DNA of 64,000 bases, taken from positions 30,556 to 94,555 of IMG/VR virus record IMGVR_UViG_3300016469_000571. One strand, written 5' to 3'. This DNA is from a virus. Below, piece after piece: positions 6,066-32,900 of this stretch; the stretch's first letter is position 1; every line of letters starts with the position of its first letter. The notes under the pieces are model-generated. The model was not told where the DNA came from, made no database searches, and saw only the letters and a program-made list of their open reading frames with translations. The position numbers were made by a program, and so were the translations under genes.

Positions 6066-7343
6066 TTATAATAATTTAGCAGCCTCGGTTGCCAATCTGG
6101 ATCTTTCACCTTTCATCAAAGTTACGTTTCCAAATATTTTAGAACCTTTGAAAGCTTTTATAACTTTAGATAAGCCGTTGTTCATTATATTTAGATTTTT
6201 TGAATCTATTTGATTAGCATCTCCAGTTAATACTATTTTGGTGCCATTTCCTGCTCTTGTTAGTAATGTTTTTATTTCGTGTTCGGAAAAGTTTTGAGCC
6301 TCATCAACAATAATAAAAGCATTTGGAATAGATCTACCTCTAGCAAATGTAATCAAATCTAATTCTATTTTACCTTTATTTACATACATTTCAAAATCTT
6401 TTTTCCATGTTTGACCTCTATCTTTGCTAGAGAATAGTAGCTCCATAGAATCCATAATTGCTGCAAAGTGTGGGTTTTTCTTTTCTTCCAAATCTCCTGG
6501 TAAAAATCCTATGTCATTTCCTACAACTTCAACAGGTCGATAAATAATTAACTTATCATAAGATTTATGATTTAAAACAGCTTCTAAGCCACAAGCTAAA
6601 ACACATAAGCTTTTACCTGAACCAGCAACACCTAAAGCAGTTACAAGCTCTACGCTTTTGTCTAAAGATAATTCCATTAAGCATAATTGATCTTTATTTC
6701 TTGGAGTTAAATTCCAAGGCTTATGATCTCTTACTAGTTTTAATTTACCATTTGCCATTTTTCTTGATAATCCATAATTTTTCTCTGAATTATCATTAAA
6801 TAATATAAATGAGTTTGTATCTAGTTCAAAAGGATCATCTACAGAACCATTTGATTGAAGTTCAACGCCTATAGTATAATCATCTGAATATTTCATATGA
6901 TTATTTAAATCTAAAAATGATATAGATTTTGTTCTATTAACCGCAGACATTTCAAATGCTTTTGCTTTAATTCTTAAATTAATATCTGCTGTAACTATAC
7001 ATACTTCTTTACCAGATAATCTTTGAATTTTAAAAGCACAGGATAAGATTTTATTATCTCCATATTTCATGTCTTGTAATAGATTTTCATCAAAATCAAA
7101 ATCTATTTTTATTCTAGAGTTTTTCTGTATGCTTACATTTGATTCTTTAGAGTCTGTAAAAATCTCATCTAAAACTCTAATTGCAGCTCTAGCATTTTGA
7201 GATACTTCTCCTTGGTATTTTTTTAATTTATCCAATTCTTCTAAAACTACATATGGAATAACAATTTGACAATCTTCAAATGAATATACAAGAGTTGGGT
7301 CTTCAACTAAAGCAGATGTGTCAAGTACGTAGATTTTGTTCAT
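6066..7343 (-). CDS. phoH: PIN-PhoH (PhoH2) family protein
   Basis: N-terminal PIN domain (VLDTS, VLEELD, DNKIL, TADINL) plus PhoH ATPase (GVAGSGKS, GFLPG, RGRS, DEAQN, GDxxQID). Confidence 0.93.
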   Translation of the reverse strand: MNKIYVLDTSALVEDPTLVYSFEDCQIVIPYVVLEELDKLKKYQGEVSQNARAAIRVLDEIFTDSKESNVSIQKNSRIKIDFDFDENLLQDMKYGDNKILSCAFKIQRLSGKEVCIVTADINLRIKAKAFEMSAVNRTKSISFLDLNNHMKYSDDYTIGVELQSNGSVDDPFELDTNSFILFNDNSEKNYGLSRKMANGKLKLVRDHKPWNLTPRNKDQLCLMELSLDKSVELVTALGVAGSGKSLCVLACGLEAVLNHKSYDKLIIYRPVEVVGNDIGFLPGDLEEKKNPHFAAIMDSMELLFSSKDRGQTWKKDFEMYVNKGKIELDLITFARGRSIPNAFIIVDEAQNFSEHEIKTLLTRAGNGTKIVLTGDANQIDSKNLNIMNNGLSKVIKAFKGSKIFGNVTLMKGERSRLATEAAKLL

Positions 7344-7828: not shown

Positions 7829-8476
7829 TTATGAAGAGCACATAACACATGCTTCTGGATTATCTAAAGAACATGCAAGCTCTTCTTGATTTTGAAGCTG
7901 TTTATTTTTTAATTCATCTTCTATTTTTCTATCTACTGTGAATTTTTGAGCACCCTTGTTTTGAGTTCTAGTATAATACACAATTGTTTTCAATCCTTTT
8001 TTCCATCCATAAAAATAAGCCGAAGTTAGTTTTGCAAATGTAGGGTCTTTAAAATAAAGATTTAAAGATTGTGATTGACATATAAATGCACCACGATCAG
8101 CAGACATGTCTATTAATGTTTTTTGAGACATTTCCCATACTGTTTTGTATAAAGATTTTAAATTATCTGGTATTTCATCAATGTTTTGAATTGATCCCTC
8201 GGATGCAATAATTTTTTGTCTTATTGTATCATCCCATAAATTTAAATCAATTAAATCATCTACTAGATATTTATTTATCATAATAAATTCTCCAGAAGAA
8301 GTTGATCTTTTATATAAATTGGATGTAATTGCTTCAAAACACTCTGTATTTCCCATGATTTGACTTGTATTATGAGAAACAACACCATTTGATAGCAAAT
8401 ATTGATGATTTTCATTCACTTCCAAATCCCATGTTGGAATCGCCTCTTGCAATTTTTTTATTGATTTTATTTTCAT
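7829..8476 (-). CDS. nrdA: RNR class Ia alpha, part 3: split-intein C half 2 (36 aa) plus C-terminal extein
   Basis: AAGGA RBS before ATG 8476; MKIKSIKK...TWDLEV..NHQY..NGVVSHN|[12 protein letters not shown]; [10 protein letters not shown] pair and terminal CVMC. Confidence 0.93.
8369..8476 (-). mobile_element. Split intein 2, C-terminal half
   Basis: Intein blocks F/G ending His-Asn, followed by Thr+1. Confidence 0.9.
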
Positions 8477-9368
8477 ATTCAATTCCTTTTTTTAATAAGC
8501 TTTTATTTATTACTTCTAATGACTCTTCGTCTGTAAAACTTTCCCAAATTATATAATAATCAAAACCTTTAGATTCTGCTAAATCTTTTTTTTCTTTATC
8601 TAATAAGTATACGGCGTTTGCATCTAATTGAACTTCTTTTTTTGAAAAAGAAAATCTTTTCCATTCAGACCATTCTTTGGAATTTAACTTTGATGGATTT
8701 GGATGAAACTTTTCACCATTATACTCAATAATAATTTTTAAATCAGGTATAGTAAAATCGTAATAACTTAATCGCTTTTTTTCTTTATTATAAATATAAT
8801 ACTCTTTATTTTCTTTAAAACCAAAGAAATGTTTTATGTTTTTTTGTTTTAAAAAACAAGATAATGGCTCAAAATATCTTAAAGATTTTTTAGAGGCATT
8901 GCAAAACTGAACTTTTTTCTTATTTAAGATTTGTTCTACTTTTACAATTGCCTCATCACTTGAATATCCTTTTTTTATCCAAAAATCTACTGATGATGTA
9001 TTTAAATTTTTTTCATAAAATTCTTTTCTTTTTAATTCAGCCTCTTCTTTAGAAAATCCTTTATTTATCCAATAGCTAGAATTAAAAACAGTATTTTTAG
9101 ATTTTTTATTTTTATATTCACTCCATTTTATTTTACCTAAATCATGCCCATATTTTTCAATATATTTTTCCTCTGTATGTTTTGATGTGTTTTGAAAAAG
9201 TCTAAATTTTTTTAGACCTTCTTCTTCTCCATATTTTTTTATAAAATTTTCTTTAGATGTTGCTTTAGATTTTTTATATTCTATTATTTTAATATTAGCC
9301 TCTTCTAAGCTAATATTATCTCTTTTTGAAATATAAATTGGATCATAAACACTATTTTTAACTTTCAT
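8412..9368 (-). CDS. Free-standing Vsr-like (PD-(D/E)XK-related) putative homing endonuclease with N-terminal repeats
   Basis: YDF...[11 protein letters not shown]...DKEK..LAESKGF.YYIIWE; repeats (F/Y)IxKYG and WIxKG(F/Y)SxxEA; lies between the intein halves. Confidence 0.8.
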
Positions 9369-9413
9369 AAAAGCTATATAGCATTATAGCTAACATCAAT
9401 AAATAAAAAAAAA

Positions 9414-10394
9414 TTACACTGAAACTATCTCATCATTTTCTGTTAGTTCATCAACTCTTTTCCAAATCTCTCCATTTGTAGATTTTACTAACAATAAATG
9501 ATTATTTGTAAATTTATATTTTTTACCATCTTCAAATTCTATTTCTATTACATCTTTGTATCCATTATAATGAATACCTGGAGATTTTTTTAGCCCATCT
9601 TTTGTTTGTACAAATACATCTTTTTCAAATGGAATTGTCATTTGCTGATCTATTTGTTCTATTCTTTTCCAATCTATATTTTGTTGATCCATTAAAGAAT
9701 ATAAGGAAATTGGATTAAAATTAGCATCTAATATTTCATTTTCTCCAGATTGGCAAGATGCTGTCGGCATTGGGGCTAATAATAAGCTATTTCTTAATCC
9801 ATTTTCTTTTATTTTTTGTTTTAGTGAATCCCAATTGTACATTTCTGGTTCTACTCCCCACATATCAAATTGTAATATTCCTTGAGATGCAGGGCTTCCA
9901 TCAAAAGTCTCATATTTTCCATTTTTTATAGCCAAATCACAAGATGTGTTTAGGGCACTAAAATATATTGTTTCAAATATATTTTTATTTAATTCTTTTG
10001 CATTATCAGAATCAAATGGAAATTTCATTTTTGCAAAAACATCTGCTAATCCTTGAACTCCTAAACCAATTGGTCTATGTCTAAAATTAGATTTTTTTGC
10101 GGCTTCTGTTGGATAAAATCCAATATCTATTACTTTATTTAAATTTTCAACTAGTATTTTTGTTATTTCAGATAGTTTATTGAAATTAAAATATAAATTA
10201 CCTTTCTTTCCAGAAAGGCAAGAAGGTAAAGATATTGACGCTAATGTACATACGGCAGTTTCATCTGGAGTGGATACTTCAAAAATTTCAGTACAATTAT
10301 GAACTAAAATATCATTTGCAAAAAAATTTGCAGATTCTTCGATAGTAAAATCATATACAGGTATTTCTTCTTCTAAAAATTCTATTTCTAACAT
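9414..10394 (-). CDS. nrdA: RNR class Ia alpha, part 2: intein C half 1, middle extein, intein N half 2
   Basis: ...ILVHN|CTEIFE..AVCTLAS..RPIGLGVQGLAD..GLRNSLLLAPMPTAS|CQSG...FTNNH...WKRVDEL. Confidence 0.93.
   Translation of the reverse strand: MLEIEFLEEEIPVYDFTIEESANFFANDILVHNCTEIFEVSTPDETAVCTLASISLPSCLSGKKGNLYFNFNKLSEITKILVENLNKVIDIGFYPTEAAKKSNFRHRPIGLGVQGLADVFAKMKFPFDSDNAKELNKNIFETIYFSALNTSCDLAIKNGKYETFDGSPASQGILQFDMWGVEPEMYNWDSLKQKIKENGLRNSLLLAPMPTASCQSGENEILDANFNPISLYSLMDQQNIDWKRIEQIDQQMTIPFEKDVFVQTKDGLKKSPGIHYNGYKDVIEIEFEDGKKYKFTNNHLLLVKSTNGEIWKRVDELTENDEIVSV
9417..9755 (-). mobile_element. Split intein 2, N-terminal half (113 aa)
   Basis: Cys1 after PTAS; block B TxxH (FTNNH); ends at a stop after ELTENDEIV. 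Confidence 0.9.
10296..10394 (-). mobile_element. Split intein 1, C-terminal half (33 aa)
   Basis: VYDFTIE..NFFANDILVHN followed by Cys+1; GAGGA RBS before the ATG. Confidence 0.9.
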
Positions 10395-10448
10395 TAATCC
10401 TCGTAAATATAATTTATTTTTATGTCACTTTGTTTATAATGGCTCAAA

Positions 10449-12038
10449 TCATGATAAAAGTAACACATCATCCTTATTTAAATATTGAGCCTCTACATAA
10501 CCTCTATTTTTTGTATAGATTTTATGATCTGGGGTACATTTTAATTCTTTCCCATTGTATTTTATTTTAATAACTTTAGATTTCTCACTTGTTAAGCAAG
10601 ATTTTAATATTTTATTAAATTTTAGCTCATTTGTATTTTCATTACAACTTAATATATATAAGTCTTGTGTTTTTAATAAATCATTTACCTCTTTCATTGA
10701 AAGAGTATACTCTTCCAAATCATTTGGATTTTTCTTTACTCTAACCATTGCATTTCCATCAATACATAAATTCGAGCTTTTAATTATTCCAATATTTTTT
10801 TGATTTGATTTTATATTTCCAGAGTCTTTTGCTAATAAATATGGCTGACCAGTTTCAATACATGATTCTAATATTTTAGACCAAATATCTCTTGCTTTTA
10901 CTTTTTTTACAAATTTATTTTCATTTTCATATTTTGTATATAATTTTTCAAAATCCTCTCCATATACATCAGATAAGCCTTTTGAAATATTAGGGTCCAT
11001 CAAAGACCAATCATCATCACTCTCTACTCTTTTAAAGAATAAATCAGGAGCCCAAATAGCTAGATTTAAATCTCTAGCCCTTAACTCTTCCTTACCATTA
11101 TTTTTTCTTAAATCTAAGAAATCCTCTATATCACAATGCCAAGGCTCTAAATATGCAGCAAATGCGCCTGGTCTTTTACCACCTTGATTAACATACCTAG
11201 CAGTCTCATTATATACTTTAAGCATTGGAATAATACCATTACTTGATCCACCAGTACCATATATATGGCTGCCTTTTGATCTAACATCGTGAATATGAAA
11301 ACCAATTCCGCCAGATGATTTTGATATCTTCGCAACTTCTTTTAAAGTATCAAAAATACCAGATATAGAATCTTCTTTATTTGCTATTAAATAGCATGAG
11401 TTTAATTGATTTTGAACAGTACCAGCATTGAACAATGTTGGTGTCGCATGAGTTGCTTCCAATTTTGACAATAAATTATATGTATTTAAGCAAGCATCAA
11501 TATCATCAAAATGAATACCACAAGCCACCCTCATCCACAAATGTTGAGGTCTCTCAACTATTTTATTGTCAATTTTTTGTAAATAACTTTTTTGTAAAGT
11601 TTTAAAACCAAAGTAATCAAACAAAAAATCTCTATTGTAATCAATAGCACTATCCAAAACATGAGAGTGCTTTTTAACAAATTTAATTACATCATTAGAA
11701 ATGAACTGTATTTTATTTCCATGAATATCTTGTTTATATGATAGCTTTTCAATTACATTTGAAAATGTACTATCTGTGTCTTTATGCAATCTAGTTATCT
11801 CTAATCTTAAATCTAGCTTATCATATTCTGGATTTTTTATTGACATAGAATATGCAGTTTCTATTGCTAGAGAATCTAACTCTATTGTAGTAACACCATC
11901 AAATAAACCACCAATGACTTTTTGAGAAATATAATAAGCATCAACGTTTTTTAAATCTTTTGATTGTCTTTGAATTCTTTTTAAAATCTTATCAAATTTT
12001 ACAGTTTCTTTTTGTCCATTTCTTTTAACAACAAACAT
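10449..12038 (-). CDS. nrdA: RNR class Ia alpha, part 1: ATP cone, N-terminal extein and intein N half 1
   Basis: MFVVKRNG ATP cone, ERPQH, ATPTLFNAG, QLNSCYL, GGIG, QGGKRPGA, ETGQPY, SSNL|CIDG. Confidence 0.95.
   Translation of the reverse strand: MFVVKRNGQKETVKFDKILKRIQRQSKDLKNVDAYYISQKVIGGLFDGVTTIELDSLAIETAYSMSIKNPEYDKLDLRLEITRLHKDTDSTFSNVIEKLSYKQDIHGNKIQFISNDVIKFVKKHSHVLDSAIDYNRDFLFDYFGFKTLQKSYLQKIDNKIVERPQHLWMRVACGIHFDDIDACLNTYNLLSKLEATHATPTLFNAGTVQNQLNSCYLIANKEDSISGIFDTLKEVAKISKSSGGIGFHIHDVRSKGSHIYGTGGSSNGIIPMLKVYNETARYVNQGGKRPGAFAAYLEPWHCDIEDFLDLRKNNGKEELRARDLNLAIWAPDLFFKRVESDDDWSLMDPNISKGLSDVYGEDFEKLYTKYENENKFVKKVKARDIWSKILESCIETGQPYLLAKDSGNIKSNQKNIGIIKSSNLCIDGNAMVRVKKNPNDLEEYTLSMKEVNDLLKTQDLYILSCNENTNELKFNKILKSCLTSEKSKVIKIKYNGKELKCTPDHKIYTKNRGYVEAQYLNKDDVLLLS
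10452..10766 (-). mobile_element. Split intein 1, N-terminal half (105 aa)
   Basis: Cys1 after SSNL; CTPDH block B; RGYVEAQYLNKDD; then TGA. Confidence 0.9.
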
Positions 12039-19892: not shown

Positions 19893-20222
19893 TCAATAAA
19901 ACATCAAATATACTTCAAATTTATTAATATTGTTAATATAAATTTTGTCAAAGCTTTCAAAATATTTTTTAATATGATCAATGTCTTTTGTTTCTAAAAT
20001 TTTATTTTCTATTTCTAGTAAATCATTTTTTGTACAACCAAGCTCAATTAAGGTATTAACAACTGATCTTACTAAATAAGTATTTGCGATTTGTAAACCG
20101 ATCTTTTTTAAAGATTCTATATCTTTAAATTTTTTCTTAGAATTTTCTTTTAACAAAGTATCAGTAAATATATCAATACTTGATATTACTAGTTTATTTT
20201 CTTTTGTCGATAACATTTCCAA
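19893..20222 (-). CDS. Hypothetical protein
   Basis: 109-aa ORF. Confidence 0.65.
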   Translation of the reverse strand: MEMLSTKENKLVISSIDIFTDTLLKENSKKKFKDIESLKKIGLQIANTYLVRSVVNTLIELGCTKNDLLEIENKILETKDIDHIKKYFESFDKIYINNINKFEVYLMFY

Positions 20223-21480
20223 CTAACTTTCCAAAAGCAGAGTTCTTTTGAGCGATTTGTTCTTTTATTCTTTGCGCAGCAGAAACATTCTGTTCTTTAC
20301 CAGAATCAAATGTAAGATTTAAATTCCTTCTATCTTCTTTTTCTTTAACTTTTTGCATTTGTAAGCTAACTTCTTTTTTCAAAGAATTAATCCTTGAATC
20401 TGGTAAGCTTAATCCAGAAAAGAAAGAATATACTTTTACATTATCTTCATTTGAATCAATTGTATAAATGCCTTTAAATATCCCAACAGGACTAGAGCAT
20501 TGTTCATTTATCATTGCCATTGCATAATTAACACTTGCTGATGTAATCTTATCCATTACTGCTTTATTTCCAGCTATGATAACACCAACATATTTGGCAT
20601 CTTTAATATCAAAACCTTCTGCCAACATATTAGAAGTTAAATTTGAAATAACTGCTTCTGCAATTGCAGTTGGTTGTTCATAGTTTGATATAGTTAGCTC
20701 TCCATAAATAGATAAACCATCTCCATCTGTTAAAATTCTTGCCCACTCTGTTGGATCTAATGGTTTTACACTAGATGGCATGGAAGATAAAGTATTAAAT
20801 ACATCAATTGGATTTGCTATAATTTTATTTGCTTGATTAAAAAAGTCAAGTTGGCTTACATTATGTAATAGCGCTTCTATTTTAGCATTATCAACAACAA
20901 TTAAATTTGAAATCTTTTTTTGCTGAACTAATTTTGTTAGTTTTGATAATGTGTCTAAAGAATTGGATTTTGTTTGAACATCATCAGATTCCATTGGCAA
21001 TATTGCCATTACTACAATAGGTTTTCCTATGTCTGACAATACGTCAATTAATGTTAAACAAGAACCAGCACCAGAGCCTCCACCCAAACTAAAACATAAT
21101 ACATTTACTTCGCTAGCATCAAGCTTTGATAGTAGTTTTACTATTTGATCTTTATTAGACTCTGCTGCCTCTGAACCTATTAGCAAATCTTTTGCAGCAC
21201 CACCTAGCCCATAATTTAGTAAAAGCTTATTCTGATCTGGAACCTCTATAAATTTAAGATCTTGCTGTGCTGTATTAATACATACAACATCATATCCTAA
21301 CTTATAATAAACTTCAGCTAATCTTCCTCCACCTTGACCAGAGCCAATAAACCCTAAATTAATAGAACGCTCTTTTTTCTTTTTTACTTTGTTTTTTAAC
21401 ATGGCAAGAGTTTCTGAATCTATCTGTAAATCATCAATAATTGTTTCTTTTGCTTTTTCTTCTATAGAATTTTTAATCAT
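20194..21480 (-). CDS. Tubulin/FtsZ-family GTPase (PhuZ/TubZ-like)
   Basis: GSGQGGGRLA, INTAQQD, GGGSGAG signature, LP..SD, VVDN and T7-like LDPTE. Confidence 0.9.
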   Translation of the reverse strand: MIKNSIEEKAKETIIDDLQIDSETLAMLKNKVKKKKERSINLGFIGSGQGGGRLAEVYYKLGYDVVCINTAQQDLKFIEVPDQNKLLLNYGLGGAAKDLLIGSEAAESNKDQIVKLLSKLDASEVNVLCFSLGGGSGAGSCLTLIDVLSDIGKPIVVMAILPMESDDVQTKSNSLDTLSKLTKLVQQKKISNLIVVDNAKIEALLHNVSQLDFFNQANKIIANPIDVFNTLSSMPSSVKPLDPTEWARILTDGDGLSIYGELTISNYEQPTAIAEAVISNLTSNMLAEGFDIKDAKYVGVIIAGNKAVMDKITSASVNYAMAMINEQCSSPVGIFKGIYTIDSNEDNVKVYSFFSGLSLPDSRINSLKKEVSLQMQKVKEKEDRRNLNLTFDSGKEQNVSAAQRIKEQIAQKNSAFGKLVGNVIDKRK

Positions 21481-29922: not shown

Positions 29923-32900
29923 ATATAATTTAAGAATATCCTGGAATTTGCTGGCTTAAGTATTTTTAAAAGCTTCTCCATAATAAGCTTGCTTTGAGGA
30001 TTATCTTTTAATATATTAAAAGAATCAAATATATCTAACGTAAACTCAAAAATACCTGACTTTTTGTTTATTAACAAACAAAAATCTTCAAATAAATTAT
30101 ACTCTATATCTGAATCAAGTAAATATGTAGTATACAAATCTTTTACAACAGGCAAGCTATTAACTCCTAAATAGCTTATATCTATTGATTCATTTAAATA
30201 CTTAAATGAATTTCTATATTTGTTAGACAGTCTTAAATTATCTAAAGATATATTTCCATAATTTCTTGAGCTAAAATCAGAGCCCAATGTAAAATAATTT
30301 ATTGTATCTTTAAAAGATATTTCTTTATCAAAGAAATACCCATCATAACCGTCTCCTAATATAGTAGACTCAAAATAATTATTAAAGTAAATAGAACCTT
30401 CATAACTTATTTGCGAATGTCTATAACCATCTATAAACAATAATAAATTCTCATTGCTAGAGTTAAACTTATAAGAGGCTTTTACTCTATGCCAAGAATT
30501 TTTTTCCCAAACAATTGGAGCTTTTATTGCATAAAGTTTATTGCTAGCTGTAATTTCAAAATTTAAATTGCTATTTGCATCTTTATAAATAGAGATTCTA
30601 TCTCCGTTTGTTCCTTTTGGAATATAAATTACTTTTACTTTTGTATTATTTTGAGGTAATGGTTTGCCTAGTTTTATTACTTGCTCATTTATTGTTGTTT
30701 GAGTCTTAGGCTTGTAAGATACAATAACTTGAACATTGTTATTTGGTAAGTTTTTATTCAAATAAATGGTTTTACCATCACTTGAAATTGAACCACCATC
30801 AAAATAATCTGTATTTAAAAAGTTATTTATTTTTACATATAAAACTTGTAATGCTGGATTTGTAATAACTACTTTATTAGATGATGTAGATGTTACTACT
30901 TCATTTACAGAATCTTTTCTTACATAGTCTATTGATCCACCAGAAAAATAATCAAAATCTGAGTCTAATGTTTTTACAGAAATAATTTGATCTGCTTTAG
31001 AAGATAAACTAATTAATTTTTTATTTGTTGATATTAACTCTTCTTCTATTAACGAAGTAGCATCAAAATAATATCTTGTATTAAAATCATACAAAGTATC
31101 ATAAATTGGACTTATCCAAAACTCTATTGTTCCTTCTTTTTTTGAATCCAAATAACCTAAATTGGTTATGTTTAAAGATCTATCTTTTAAATAAATAGAA
31201 TTATTAAATTCTGAGTTTACAGAATTATTTGAATAAATAATATTGTTGTCTTTTAAAGCAACATAATAATTAGCTTCATTTTCAAATGGAAACGAATTAA
31301 ATTTACTTAAAAATGTAAGATTTTTAGAAAGCTTTGTTCCTTTAATAGAATTAAAGTTTTTAGTAACCGAATCATTATCAGTTAAATATTCTCCTGTTCT
31401 TACATCAGTAAGAGCTATATTATATACAGCTAATTCGTTTATTATTGAATTACAATGATTTTGAGATAAATAGTCAGTACCTACATGAACTAACTCTCCA
31501 AAATCATAGTCAATACTTAAATAAGCTGGATAGCTAAATTCATAAAAACCTTTTCTTAATAAATATTGTTGACCTGGATAATCTAATGGTTCAAAATAAA
31601 AGAACCCATTTCCAATTCCAGATGCATTATCTACTGTTTTATAGATTTTATAAATACCATTTGTAAAACTATTTATTGGTAATGGATATCCTGTAGATAA
31701 TGGATCTAACTCTAATAAATAACCATCTACATTTGTTATTTTATAAAAACCAGCCATTGTTATAGGATCTTCTATTACAAGAGTGTCTCCTATATTACCT
31801 AGTGAAAAGTTATTGCTATAATCAACAACAGTTGTATCGTTAAACTTTTCTAAGTTAGATCCAGAACTAACTACATAACTATATTTAAGCACTGGTGTAT
31901 AATAGCTAACTTCTGGTTCAAAAATATTTTCAAACTCTGAAACTTTTATACTGCATAAAGCTTTAGTTGGATTTATACAATCTGCTAGTATTTTTACTTT
32001 ACTAACAGAAATAAATAAATTAGTTGTATTTAATGACCCATAATCATTAAATGATAGTATCTCAGATGTAGAAGAATATCCAACATAACCAAAAACTTCA
32101 ACTGTTAATGGATTTGTAAAATCTACATTTGTACCAGAAATTTCTACTTTTATTACTCTACCAGATTGTGAATTTATTGGATTATCTGTTAGTATTTCAC
32201 TATCGTATGTGTTTCCTAGTATTGTTGAATTGCTTGAGCTAATAAGTGTATTGTTAAGCAACAACTTATAAATCTCTACGTCAGAAATAGATGTAGGTCT
32301 TGGAAGTTGAGTTTTTATTATATTAGATAAATTATCAGACCATTGATAATATTTTGCTTTTACTACTTCATGATTTAATCCAAGACTTGTCGCAAACAAC
32401 AATTCATTTGAATTTAATCCATTTTTAATGGTTATTGTATTTTTACTTAGTTCATAATCAGATATTTCTGCTCTAGGACTTCGCAATTCAGTTTCTTCTG
32501 TAGAATAAATAAAGAATTCTACACCAGAGCTAGAAACATTTATTGTAGAATCTAATTCTAATTGATTAACATTAACAGATATTATTGTATAATAATCTTC
32601 TAAACCAGAATAATTAATTCTAATTAAATCACCAACAGAAACTATATTTGTAAAATCATTTGTTGATAACACAATATTTGTATTATTTAATGTAAGATCA
32701 TTGTCTGTAAAATAATAAGATAATTTATAAAAGTAATTATTTGTGTTTAAATAATATCTTCCATATCCATCAAAATTAGTTTGATTTACAGAGAATTCTA
32801 GATTTGTTAATGAAACCGGCATATTTGTATCAAGAGTTAAATCTTGACCAGATACAGATAGTATTTGATATCCATTTTCATTAAATAAATCATTTTTAAT

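Follow-up and report, generated by a model that had tools for sequence, protein, structure and literature searches.

Opposite charge polarity of two split inteins in a three-piece phage nrdA gene is probably inherited from each intein lineage

The window analyzed here is a stretch of 64,000 nucleotides (nt) of a virus contig (IMG/VR virus record IMGVR_UViG_3300016469_000571, positions 30,556 to 94,555; the record measures 94.5 kb and is estimated to be 22% complete) that holds nrdA, the gene for the alpha chain of a class I ribonucleotide reductase (RNR), in three pieces separated by two split inteins. The two inteins have opposite charge polarity at the strands where their halves meet: in pair 1 the N-terminal half (IntN) is basic and the C-terminal half (IntC) acidic, hereafter N+/C-, and pair 2 is N-/C+. 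An initial annotation of this DNA had read the opposition as a built-in specificity code that would keep non-cognate halves apart. Comparison with related genes does not bear this out, and the opposite polarity was probably inherited from each intein lineage rather than evolved as a pairing code for the three-piece gene, since the polarity of pair 1 also occurs in genes with a single split and that of pair 2 recurs in all its relatives found.

The nrdA of this phage consists of three extein-bearing open reading frames (ORFs) and one inserted ORF, all consecutive on the minus strand (7829-12038; Table 1), and its product is ~53% identical to NrdA of Tenacibaculum and Cellulophaga phages. The Pfam coordinates of the PF02867 barrel run without a gap over the three ORFs (2-213, 212-392, and 392-523), and the middle one, ORF2, also matches PF14890 with 44.7 bits against a cut-off of 35.8. 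In translation, the extein junctions read ...KSSNL / CTEIFEV... and ...APMPTAS / TSQIMGN..., the first falling directly before the thiyl-radical Cys, which is the +1 residue of intein 1. Because these extein ends match up, a continuous class I RNR alpha chain would be rebuilt by two splicing reactions. Intein 1 (Cys1, TPDH, HN, and Cys+1) and intein 2 (Cys1, TNNH, SHN, and Thr+1) both have intact catalytic sets, and from this anatomy and these residues we infer that both pairs splice in trans. The halves of intein 1 lie on separate ORFs at the canonical endonuclease-insertion site, with a stop after ...LLLS, a 54-bp spacer, a GAGGA ribosome-binding site, and the ATG of IntC1. ORF4 most likely starts at ATG 8476, which has AGGAA 7 nt upstream; the TTG at 8482 in the mechanical ORF list is less likely. 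In an AlphaFold2 (AF2) model of ORF2 (predicted local distance difference test score [pLDDT] 79), IntN2 is folded as a beta domain in which residues 282-286 (VIEIE) and 292-296 (KYKFT) are the strands of a beta-hairpin. A promoter and terminator scan gave sites no more frequent than in shuffled sequence.

All the charge counts of the initial annotation were reproduced by translation and counting, and its limits coincide exactly with where IntC2 ends (8369) and IntN1 starts (10766). IntC1 has 2 Asp and 7 Glu and no Lys or Arg (net -9 over 33 amino acids [aa]), IntN1 has 18 Lys/Arg and 15 Asp/Glu (net +3, with +5 in its second half), IntN2 is at -8, and IntC2 is at 0 with a head of MKIKSIKK. The opposition becomes sharper when only the interface strands are counted (IntN/IntC +4/-5 versus -5/+4). 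In pair 1, KSKVIKIKY of IntN1 (+4) faces MLEIEFLEEEIP of IntC1 (-5), and in pair 2, DVIEIEFED of IntN2 (-5) faces MKIKSIKK of IntC2 (+4), so that the strands of the two pairs resemble charge-swapped copies of each other. Against a background of all frames of 120 or more aa in the window, whole-fragment charges were ordinary, with 18% and 13% of background windows being equally or more extreme than IntN1 (+3) and IntN2 (-8), respectively. In contrast, local values were rare: IntC1 (-9 in 33 aa) reached the 0.19% tail and all four interface strands lay in 0.5-0.9% tails, values that are descriptive because the strand windows were picked after inspection. Since the strands are rare and the whole fragments ordinary, the signal is located in the partner beta-strands and not in overall net charge. 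Whole-fragment net charge was dropped as a statistic, only the strands standing out from the window background.

As each pair is complementary and the pairs are opposite in polarity, the non-cognate combinations IntC1/IntN2 and IntN1/IntC2 are both like-charged. Under the published electrostatic capture (capture-and-collapse) model, like charge should disfavor these non-cognate combinations. In AF2 monomer models of the window's middle fragment and of P0010, a middle fragment with the same polarity in both inteins, IntC1 had a pLDDT below 50 in both and was not placed on IntN2 with confidence.

To what extent such charges matter for docking can be judged from natural variation. Two degenerate-motif scans of IMG/VR supplied loci in which both partners were readable; the second required an MKIK start and is therefore no independent test of the polarity of pair 2. 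Among the matches listed, the pair-1 family was represented by 39 natural split pairs, none identical to another, in which the Spearman correlation between IntC and IntN strand charge was -0.78 (9 aa) or -0.84 (18 aa). These IntC/IntN charges form a continuum from -8/+8 to +4/-6, with the window at -5/+4, and the comparison shows tight co-evolution of partner-strand charges within one intein family, with charges that cross zero. It is therefore highly improbable that the charges are irrelevant to pairing, that is, a solubility feature or the compositional noise of short AT-rich coding sequences, with docking wholly hydrophobic or structural. The whole-fragment charges of IntN1 and IntN2 do lie within the ordinary range of this phage, and in NpuDnaE charges may mainly aid solubility (Beyer et al., 10.1101/546465). 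However, such irrelevance is at odds with the anticorrelation over the 39 pairs, with local charge values in the 0.2-0.9% tails, and with the gp41-1 crystal structure and the models of five natural pairs, in which salt bridges span these strands (10.1101/546465; PMC2677866).

The N+/C- polarity is also found well outside three-piece genes: two-piece nrdA genes have it, and so do a two-piece DnaE (L008, IntC/IntN -8/+8) and a further RNR in two pieces (L039, with some ten loci like it). The reversed polarity is thus a lineage trait, being present where no second split intein exists. The assignment of the two polarities in the initial annotation, pair 2 standard and pair 1 reversed, stands as far as the signs go, although calling pair 1 a reversal of the known pattern is dated, both polarities having been published since 2009 with gp41-1 and gp41-8 as N+/C- cases (PMC2677866).

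The two pairs also differ in descent. A phmmer search of the PDB with IntN1 found the NrdJ-1 intein (8ubs_A, E 4.7e-11, IntN1 residues 23-104), and IntC1 alone matched NrdJ-1 weakly (E 0.25). The basic IntN1 strand aligns with the acidic AELVELEID of NrdJ-1, so that pair 1 is a natural charge-inverted member of the NrdJ-1 family. For IntN2 the PDB search returned no close solved relative; pair 2 belongs to a HINT family at RNR site b that has no name, with homologous split pairs in many IMG/VR loci among the matches listed. Similarity between IntN1 and IntN2 was not detectable (E 0.81), and IntC1 and IntC2 share 32% identity over 31 aa. Pair 1 and pair 2 are of two different, unrelated intein families. 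Different intein families do not cross-react because only the fold is common to them (2026 NrdJ-1 preprint, 10.64898/2026.03.03.709324), and in a survey of orthogonality 15 of 16 inteins were mutually orthogonal (Pinto et al. 2020, PMC7090010). In the same survey gp41-1, gp41-8, NrdJ-1, and IMPDH-1 were used in one pot, so that inteins of shared polarity did not cross-react. As the halves on the window's middle fragment come from unrelated inteins, a cyclization of the kind used in split-intein circular ligation of peptides and proteins (SICLOPPS) is not expected whatever the charge.

If opposite polarity were needed, other three-piece genes would be the place to see it. An ORF2 search returned thousands of relatives, of which the best 120 were examined, a sample biased to top query matches. 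Of these 120, 45 were proteins of 306-375 aa that had the window's IntC1-extein-IntN2 layout; all were intact ORFs, 41 of them with both HN+C/S and PTAS/C junctions (here and below a slash within a motif marks the splice junction). In 44 of the 45, the IntC1 strand was neutral to basic (0 to +4; 0 in P0072 only) and the IntN2 strand acidic (-2 to -6), and the remaining one was a truncated fragment. A basic IntC1 with an acidic IntN2 is the very layout that the initial annotation had predicted to be prone to cyclization; it was right that the middle-fragment ends here are both acidic, and IntN1 and IntC2 both basic, but a need for this is not supported, given the 44 middle fragments with a basic or neutral IntC1. 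A search for related loci with ORF2 alone yielded one locus (L001), hence the use of motif scans instead, and a 50%-representative search gave mainly full-length or cis-intein RNRs and few extra middle fragments. Among the matches listed were 10 non-identical IMG/VR three-piece loci. Seven (L004, L081, L032, L154, L142, L180, and L191) have the same polarity in both pairs, and three (the window, L001, and L171) have opposite polarity. Pair 2 was N-/C+ in every listed three-piece locus, with the second scan conditioned on the MKIK start.

A stricter set of 43 three-piece and 30 two-piece nrdA proteins, the window included, was used for a test of association. An acidic IntC1 occurred in 1 of the 43 three-piece proteins (the window itself) versus 15 of the 30 two-piece ones, and a basic IntC1 in 42 and 15, respectively. 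With 7 of 10 loci of the same polarity besides, these samples show neither an enrichment of opposite polarity in doubly split genes nor a requirement for it. A maximum-likelihood tree built from the middle extein (180 aa) calls for at least 7 changes of architecture and at least 4 of the sign of the IntC1 charge, and independent pairs on this tree (43 + 30 proteins) gave no association of architecture with IntC1 charge. The window falls in a clade of 13 rows (Shimodaira-Hasegawa-like approximate likelihood ratio test [SH-aLRT] 94), whose other members are all uninterrupted by an intein at site b. Its nearest extein relatives, P0018 and P0022/P0034, are two-piece genes in which IntC1 is already acidic, and the IntC1 of P0018 equals that of the window at 25 of 33 residues. 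The extein tree thus says that the N+/C- state of intein 1 would be older than the second fracture in the window's extein lineage.

These results bear on whether the polarity is a selected fidelity device, in which like charges, by suppressing IntC1-IntN2 capture (cyclization or dead-end complexes) and skipping of the middle piece, led to the retention of the N+/C- intein 1 in this phage lineage or to a successful invasion by intein 2. We consider this unlikely. It would account for the strong charge, of the expected sign, on all four interface strands; the co-evolution of partner strands implies that electrostatics matter for docking, the IntC-X-IntN geometry of the middle fragment places its two halves at a high effective concentration, NpuDnaB halves have been made orthogonal by charge engineering (10.1101/546465), and the class II RNR of L001, with the same two intein families, also has opposite polarity. 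However, the supposedly unsafe layout, with catalytic residues intact, is that of 44 among the 45 other middle fragments and of 7 IMG/VR loci among the 10 listed; an acidic IntC1 is as common or commoner in two-piece genes, including the window's nearest relatives; and orthogonality between unrelated families does not depend on polarity (PMC7090010). On the same observations, the specificity code proposed in the initial annotation is not supported as a rule.

Inheritance of each polarity with its intein would fit the following sequence of events. The class I RNR alpha gene is fractured at two classic intein sites, NL/CTEI (site a) and PTAS/TSQI (site b), each carrying a split intein of a different family. 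Pair 1 represents an N+/C- lineage within the NrdJ-1 family, one also present in single-split genes, and pair 2 is N-/C+, as are all relatives found. The two elements would have been acquired independently, with intein 2, whose inserted gene is still present, probably second, invading site b of an nrdA that already had an endonuclease-less N+/C- split intein at site a. Each pair would dock by its own co-evolved charge zipper, formed by the initial IntC strand and the strand of IntN that immediately precedes block B, after which two trans-splicing reactions would restore NrdA. Partner choice would come mainly from the structural difference of the two families, with like-charge repulsion at most a small bonus. 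Repulsion between like-charged non-cognate halves probably adds a little fidelity, as a by-product.

Several points weigh against this account: (i) the comparative sample is biased (top query matches and motif-conditioned scans) and covers few independent lineages, with about 7 three-piece gains; (ii) an acidic IntC together with an acidic IntN2 occurs in 3 of 10 three-piece loci (the window, L001, and L171) and in P0058, so that a weak preference is possible; (iii) inteins are mobile, and the extein tree therefore need not give the history of intein alleles; (iv) same-polarity three-piece genes might bear a hidden cost; and (v) the account is drawn from sequence comparison. There is also a slim chance, smaller than that of the selected device, that the polarity inversion is a real but dispensable fidelity layer, in which case this nrdA, L001, L171, and P0058 would lose less to dead-end IntC-IntN capture and yield more full-length enzyme than same-polarity genes do.

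Transfer between class I and class II RNR genes is evident for both inteins, as L001 (3426-6909, plus strand), on a different phage contig, encodes a B12-dependent class II RNR in three pieces with the same two intein families at homologous sites (NPC/SEI and KPSG/TVSQ), and the 15-residue stretch VIEIEFEDGKKYKFT is common to its IntN2 and that of the window. The second gap of L001 holds a different gene, of 172 aa, with no Pfam match. A third split-intein site, VHN/GGGRRKGS, lies upstream of site a in the nrdA relatives P0033, P0058, and P0085, together with site b or alone; where it is combined with site b, IntC is basic in P0033 and acidic in P0058. In these phages, RNR alpha thus has three or more possible break positions, which occur in different combinations. 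In two further three-piece loci (L037 and L038), IntC1 was on a 99-codon frame separate from the rest of the middle fragment, by a frameshift, a sequencing error, or a further break.

Table 1. Parts of the three-piece nrdA and its two split inteins, in window coordinates
Feature	Position	Strand	Evidence
ORF1: NrdA N-extein (ATP-cone, all-alpha domain, start of barrel; ends ...KSSNL) + IntN1	10449-12038	-	Pfam PF03477, PF00317, PF02867 positions 2-213 of 523, PF14890; translation
IntN1, 105 aa, Cys1, NrdJ-1 intein family	10452-10766	-	phmmer vs PDB, 8ubs_A; block B TPDH at 10524-10535
IntN1 interface strand KSKVIKIKY, net +4	10557-10583	-	alignment with NrdJ-1 AELVELEID
Intein 1 spacer, 54 bp, without endonuclease gene; GAGGA just 5' of ORF2 ATG	10395-10448	-	sequence
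ORF2, middle fragment: IntC1 + 180-aa extein (CTEI...PMPTAS) + IntN2	9414-10394	-	PF02867 positions 212-392, PF14890, AF2
IntC1, 33 aa, net -9, ends HN then Cys+1	10296-10394	-	translation
IntC1 interface strand MLEIEFLEEEIP, net -5	10359-10394	-	translation
IntN2, 113 aa, Cys1, block B TNNH, net -8	9417-9755	-	translation, AF2
IntN2 interface strand DVIEIEFED, net -5	9528-9554	-	translation
Inserted free-standing gene, 318 aa, between intein 2 halves	8412-9368	-	layout; PHROG 22677 match
ORF4: IntC2 + NrdA C-extein	7829-8482 (mechanical ORF list)	-	PF02867 positions 392-523
IntC2, 36 aa counted from ATG 8476, net 0, ends SHN then Thr+1	8369-8476	-	translation
IntC2 interface strand MKIKSIKK, net +4	8453-8476	-	translation
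NrdA C-extein (TSQIMGN... to C-terminal CxxC tail)	7829-8368	-	Pfam PF02867 positions 392-523

The 318-aa gene inserted between the halves of intein 2 is presumably a homing endonuclease, by its position in the fractured-gene layout (PMC2677866). Its sole match was PHROG 22677, of unknown function (E 5.5e-22); there was no Pfam match even at E 10 and no PDB match, and no nuclease family (GIY-YIG or Vsr-like EDxHD) was seen there. A Vsr-like identity was tried and was not confirmed by the Pfam, PDB, or PHROG searches. The last 65 nt of the gene (8412-8476, minus strand) overlap the start of ORF4, which encodes IntC2, in another frame. A clear Shine-Dalgarno sequence precedes ORF2 and ORF4 and none precedes the inserted gene, a difference that suggests separate translational control.

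Three other features of the window are likewise on the minus strand. A third intein of the phage (17199-19880) is contiguous and cis-splicing, has a LAGLIDADG endonuclease domain, and sits in the Walker A loop (GSGK/C ... HN/T) of a UvsW-type helicase (Pfam UvsW_N, ResIII, Helicase_C, LAGLIDADG_3, and Intein_splicing). Positions 20194-21480 encode a tubulin/FtsZ-family protein of the PhuZ/TubZ type with a TubZ-like C-terminal domain (PF00091 and PF22453), which fits a large phage, the record being only 22% complete by estimate at 94.5 kb. Just downstream of the nrdA cluster, the product of 6066-7343 resembles, by eye, PhoH-like proteins, with a PIN-like region at the N-terminus and a GxxGxGKS ATPase at the C-terminus.

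Protein ligation makes wide use of split inteins, and there is a demand for orthogonal pairs with which to join three fragments. Judged by its coding content, the window locus is a natural three-fragment system whose first pair is a charge-inverted relative of the ultrafast NrdJ-1 intein. In nature, opposite polarity is dispensable for two split inteins in one gene, which for engineers would make charge swapping a tuning knob rather than the main source of orthogonality. If a fidelity layer were nonetheless real, orthogonal variants of a single ultrafast intein could be taken ready-made from the natural charge continuum of the NrdJ-1 family (-8/+8 to +4/-6). RNR genes with multiple fractures are common in phages; three or more split sites are in use, and in our sample the three-piece state arose about seven times.

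Earlier work described fractured genes that combine split inteins with free-standing homing endonuclease genes, including NrdA-1 to -7 directly before the thiyl-radical Cys (Dassa et al. 2009, PMC2677866), and the window's gene shares with them the host enzyme and, at site a, the insertion point. Their one-strand layout (N-extein-IntN, short spacer, endonuclease gene, IntC-C-extein) is the one found here for pair 2, with the inserted 318-aa gene in the place of the endonuclease gene, and pair 1 resembles the published gp41-7 in having no endonuclease gene. Unlike those genes, the window's nrdA has two fractures and three pieces, and its site-a intein is N+/C-, whereas the published NrdA-2 at site a is N-/C+. 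No account of a natural gene carrying two split inteins came up in a literature search of limited coverage. A relative of pair 1 with a solved structure is NrdJ-1 (PDB 8UBS/9OMB; 10.64898/2026.03.03.709324), with which it has in common a homologous IntN1, the TPDH..YTKNRGYV block, the same canonical split site, and the NFFANDILVHN end that is common to many family members. The two differ in the strand, acidic in NrdJ-1 (AELVELEID) and basic here (KSKVIKIKY), in the short (33 aa), acidic IntC1 of the window, and in position, pair 1 lying one residue further upstream and in a class I, not a class II, RNR.

Charge polarity itself has precedents. In gp41-1, a charge zipper has been shown (Beyer et al., 10.1101/546465), and the equivalents of its beta3 and beta6 strands have the same N+/C- arrangement in pair 1, which is of a different family; in the same study, a beta3/beta6 charge swap alone left NpuDnaE non-orthogonal. 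The orthogonal pairs of Beyer et al. rest on the idea considered here, that inverted charges reduce cross-reaction, but theirs were engineered, whereas in the window two polarities coexist naturally in one gene, with comparative data that do not show selection for it. Finally, the middle fragment of the window is flanked by IntC on the N-terminal and by IntN on the C-terminal side, as is the peptide in SICLOPPS constructs.

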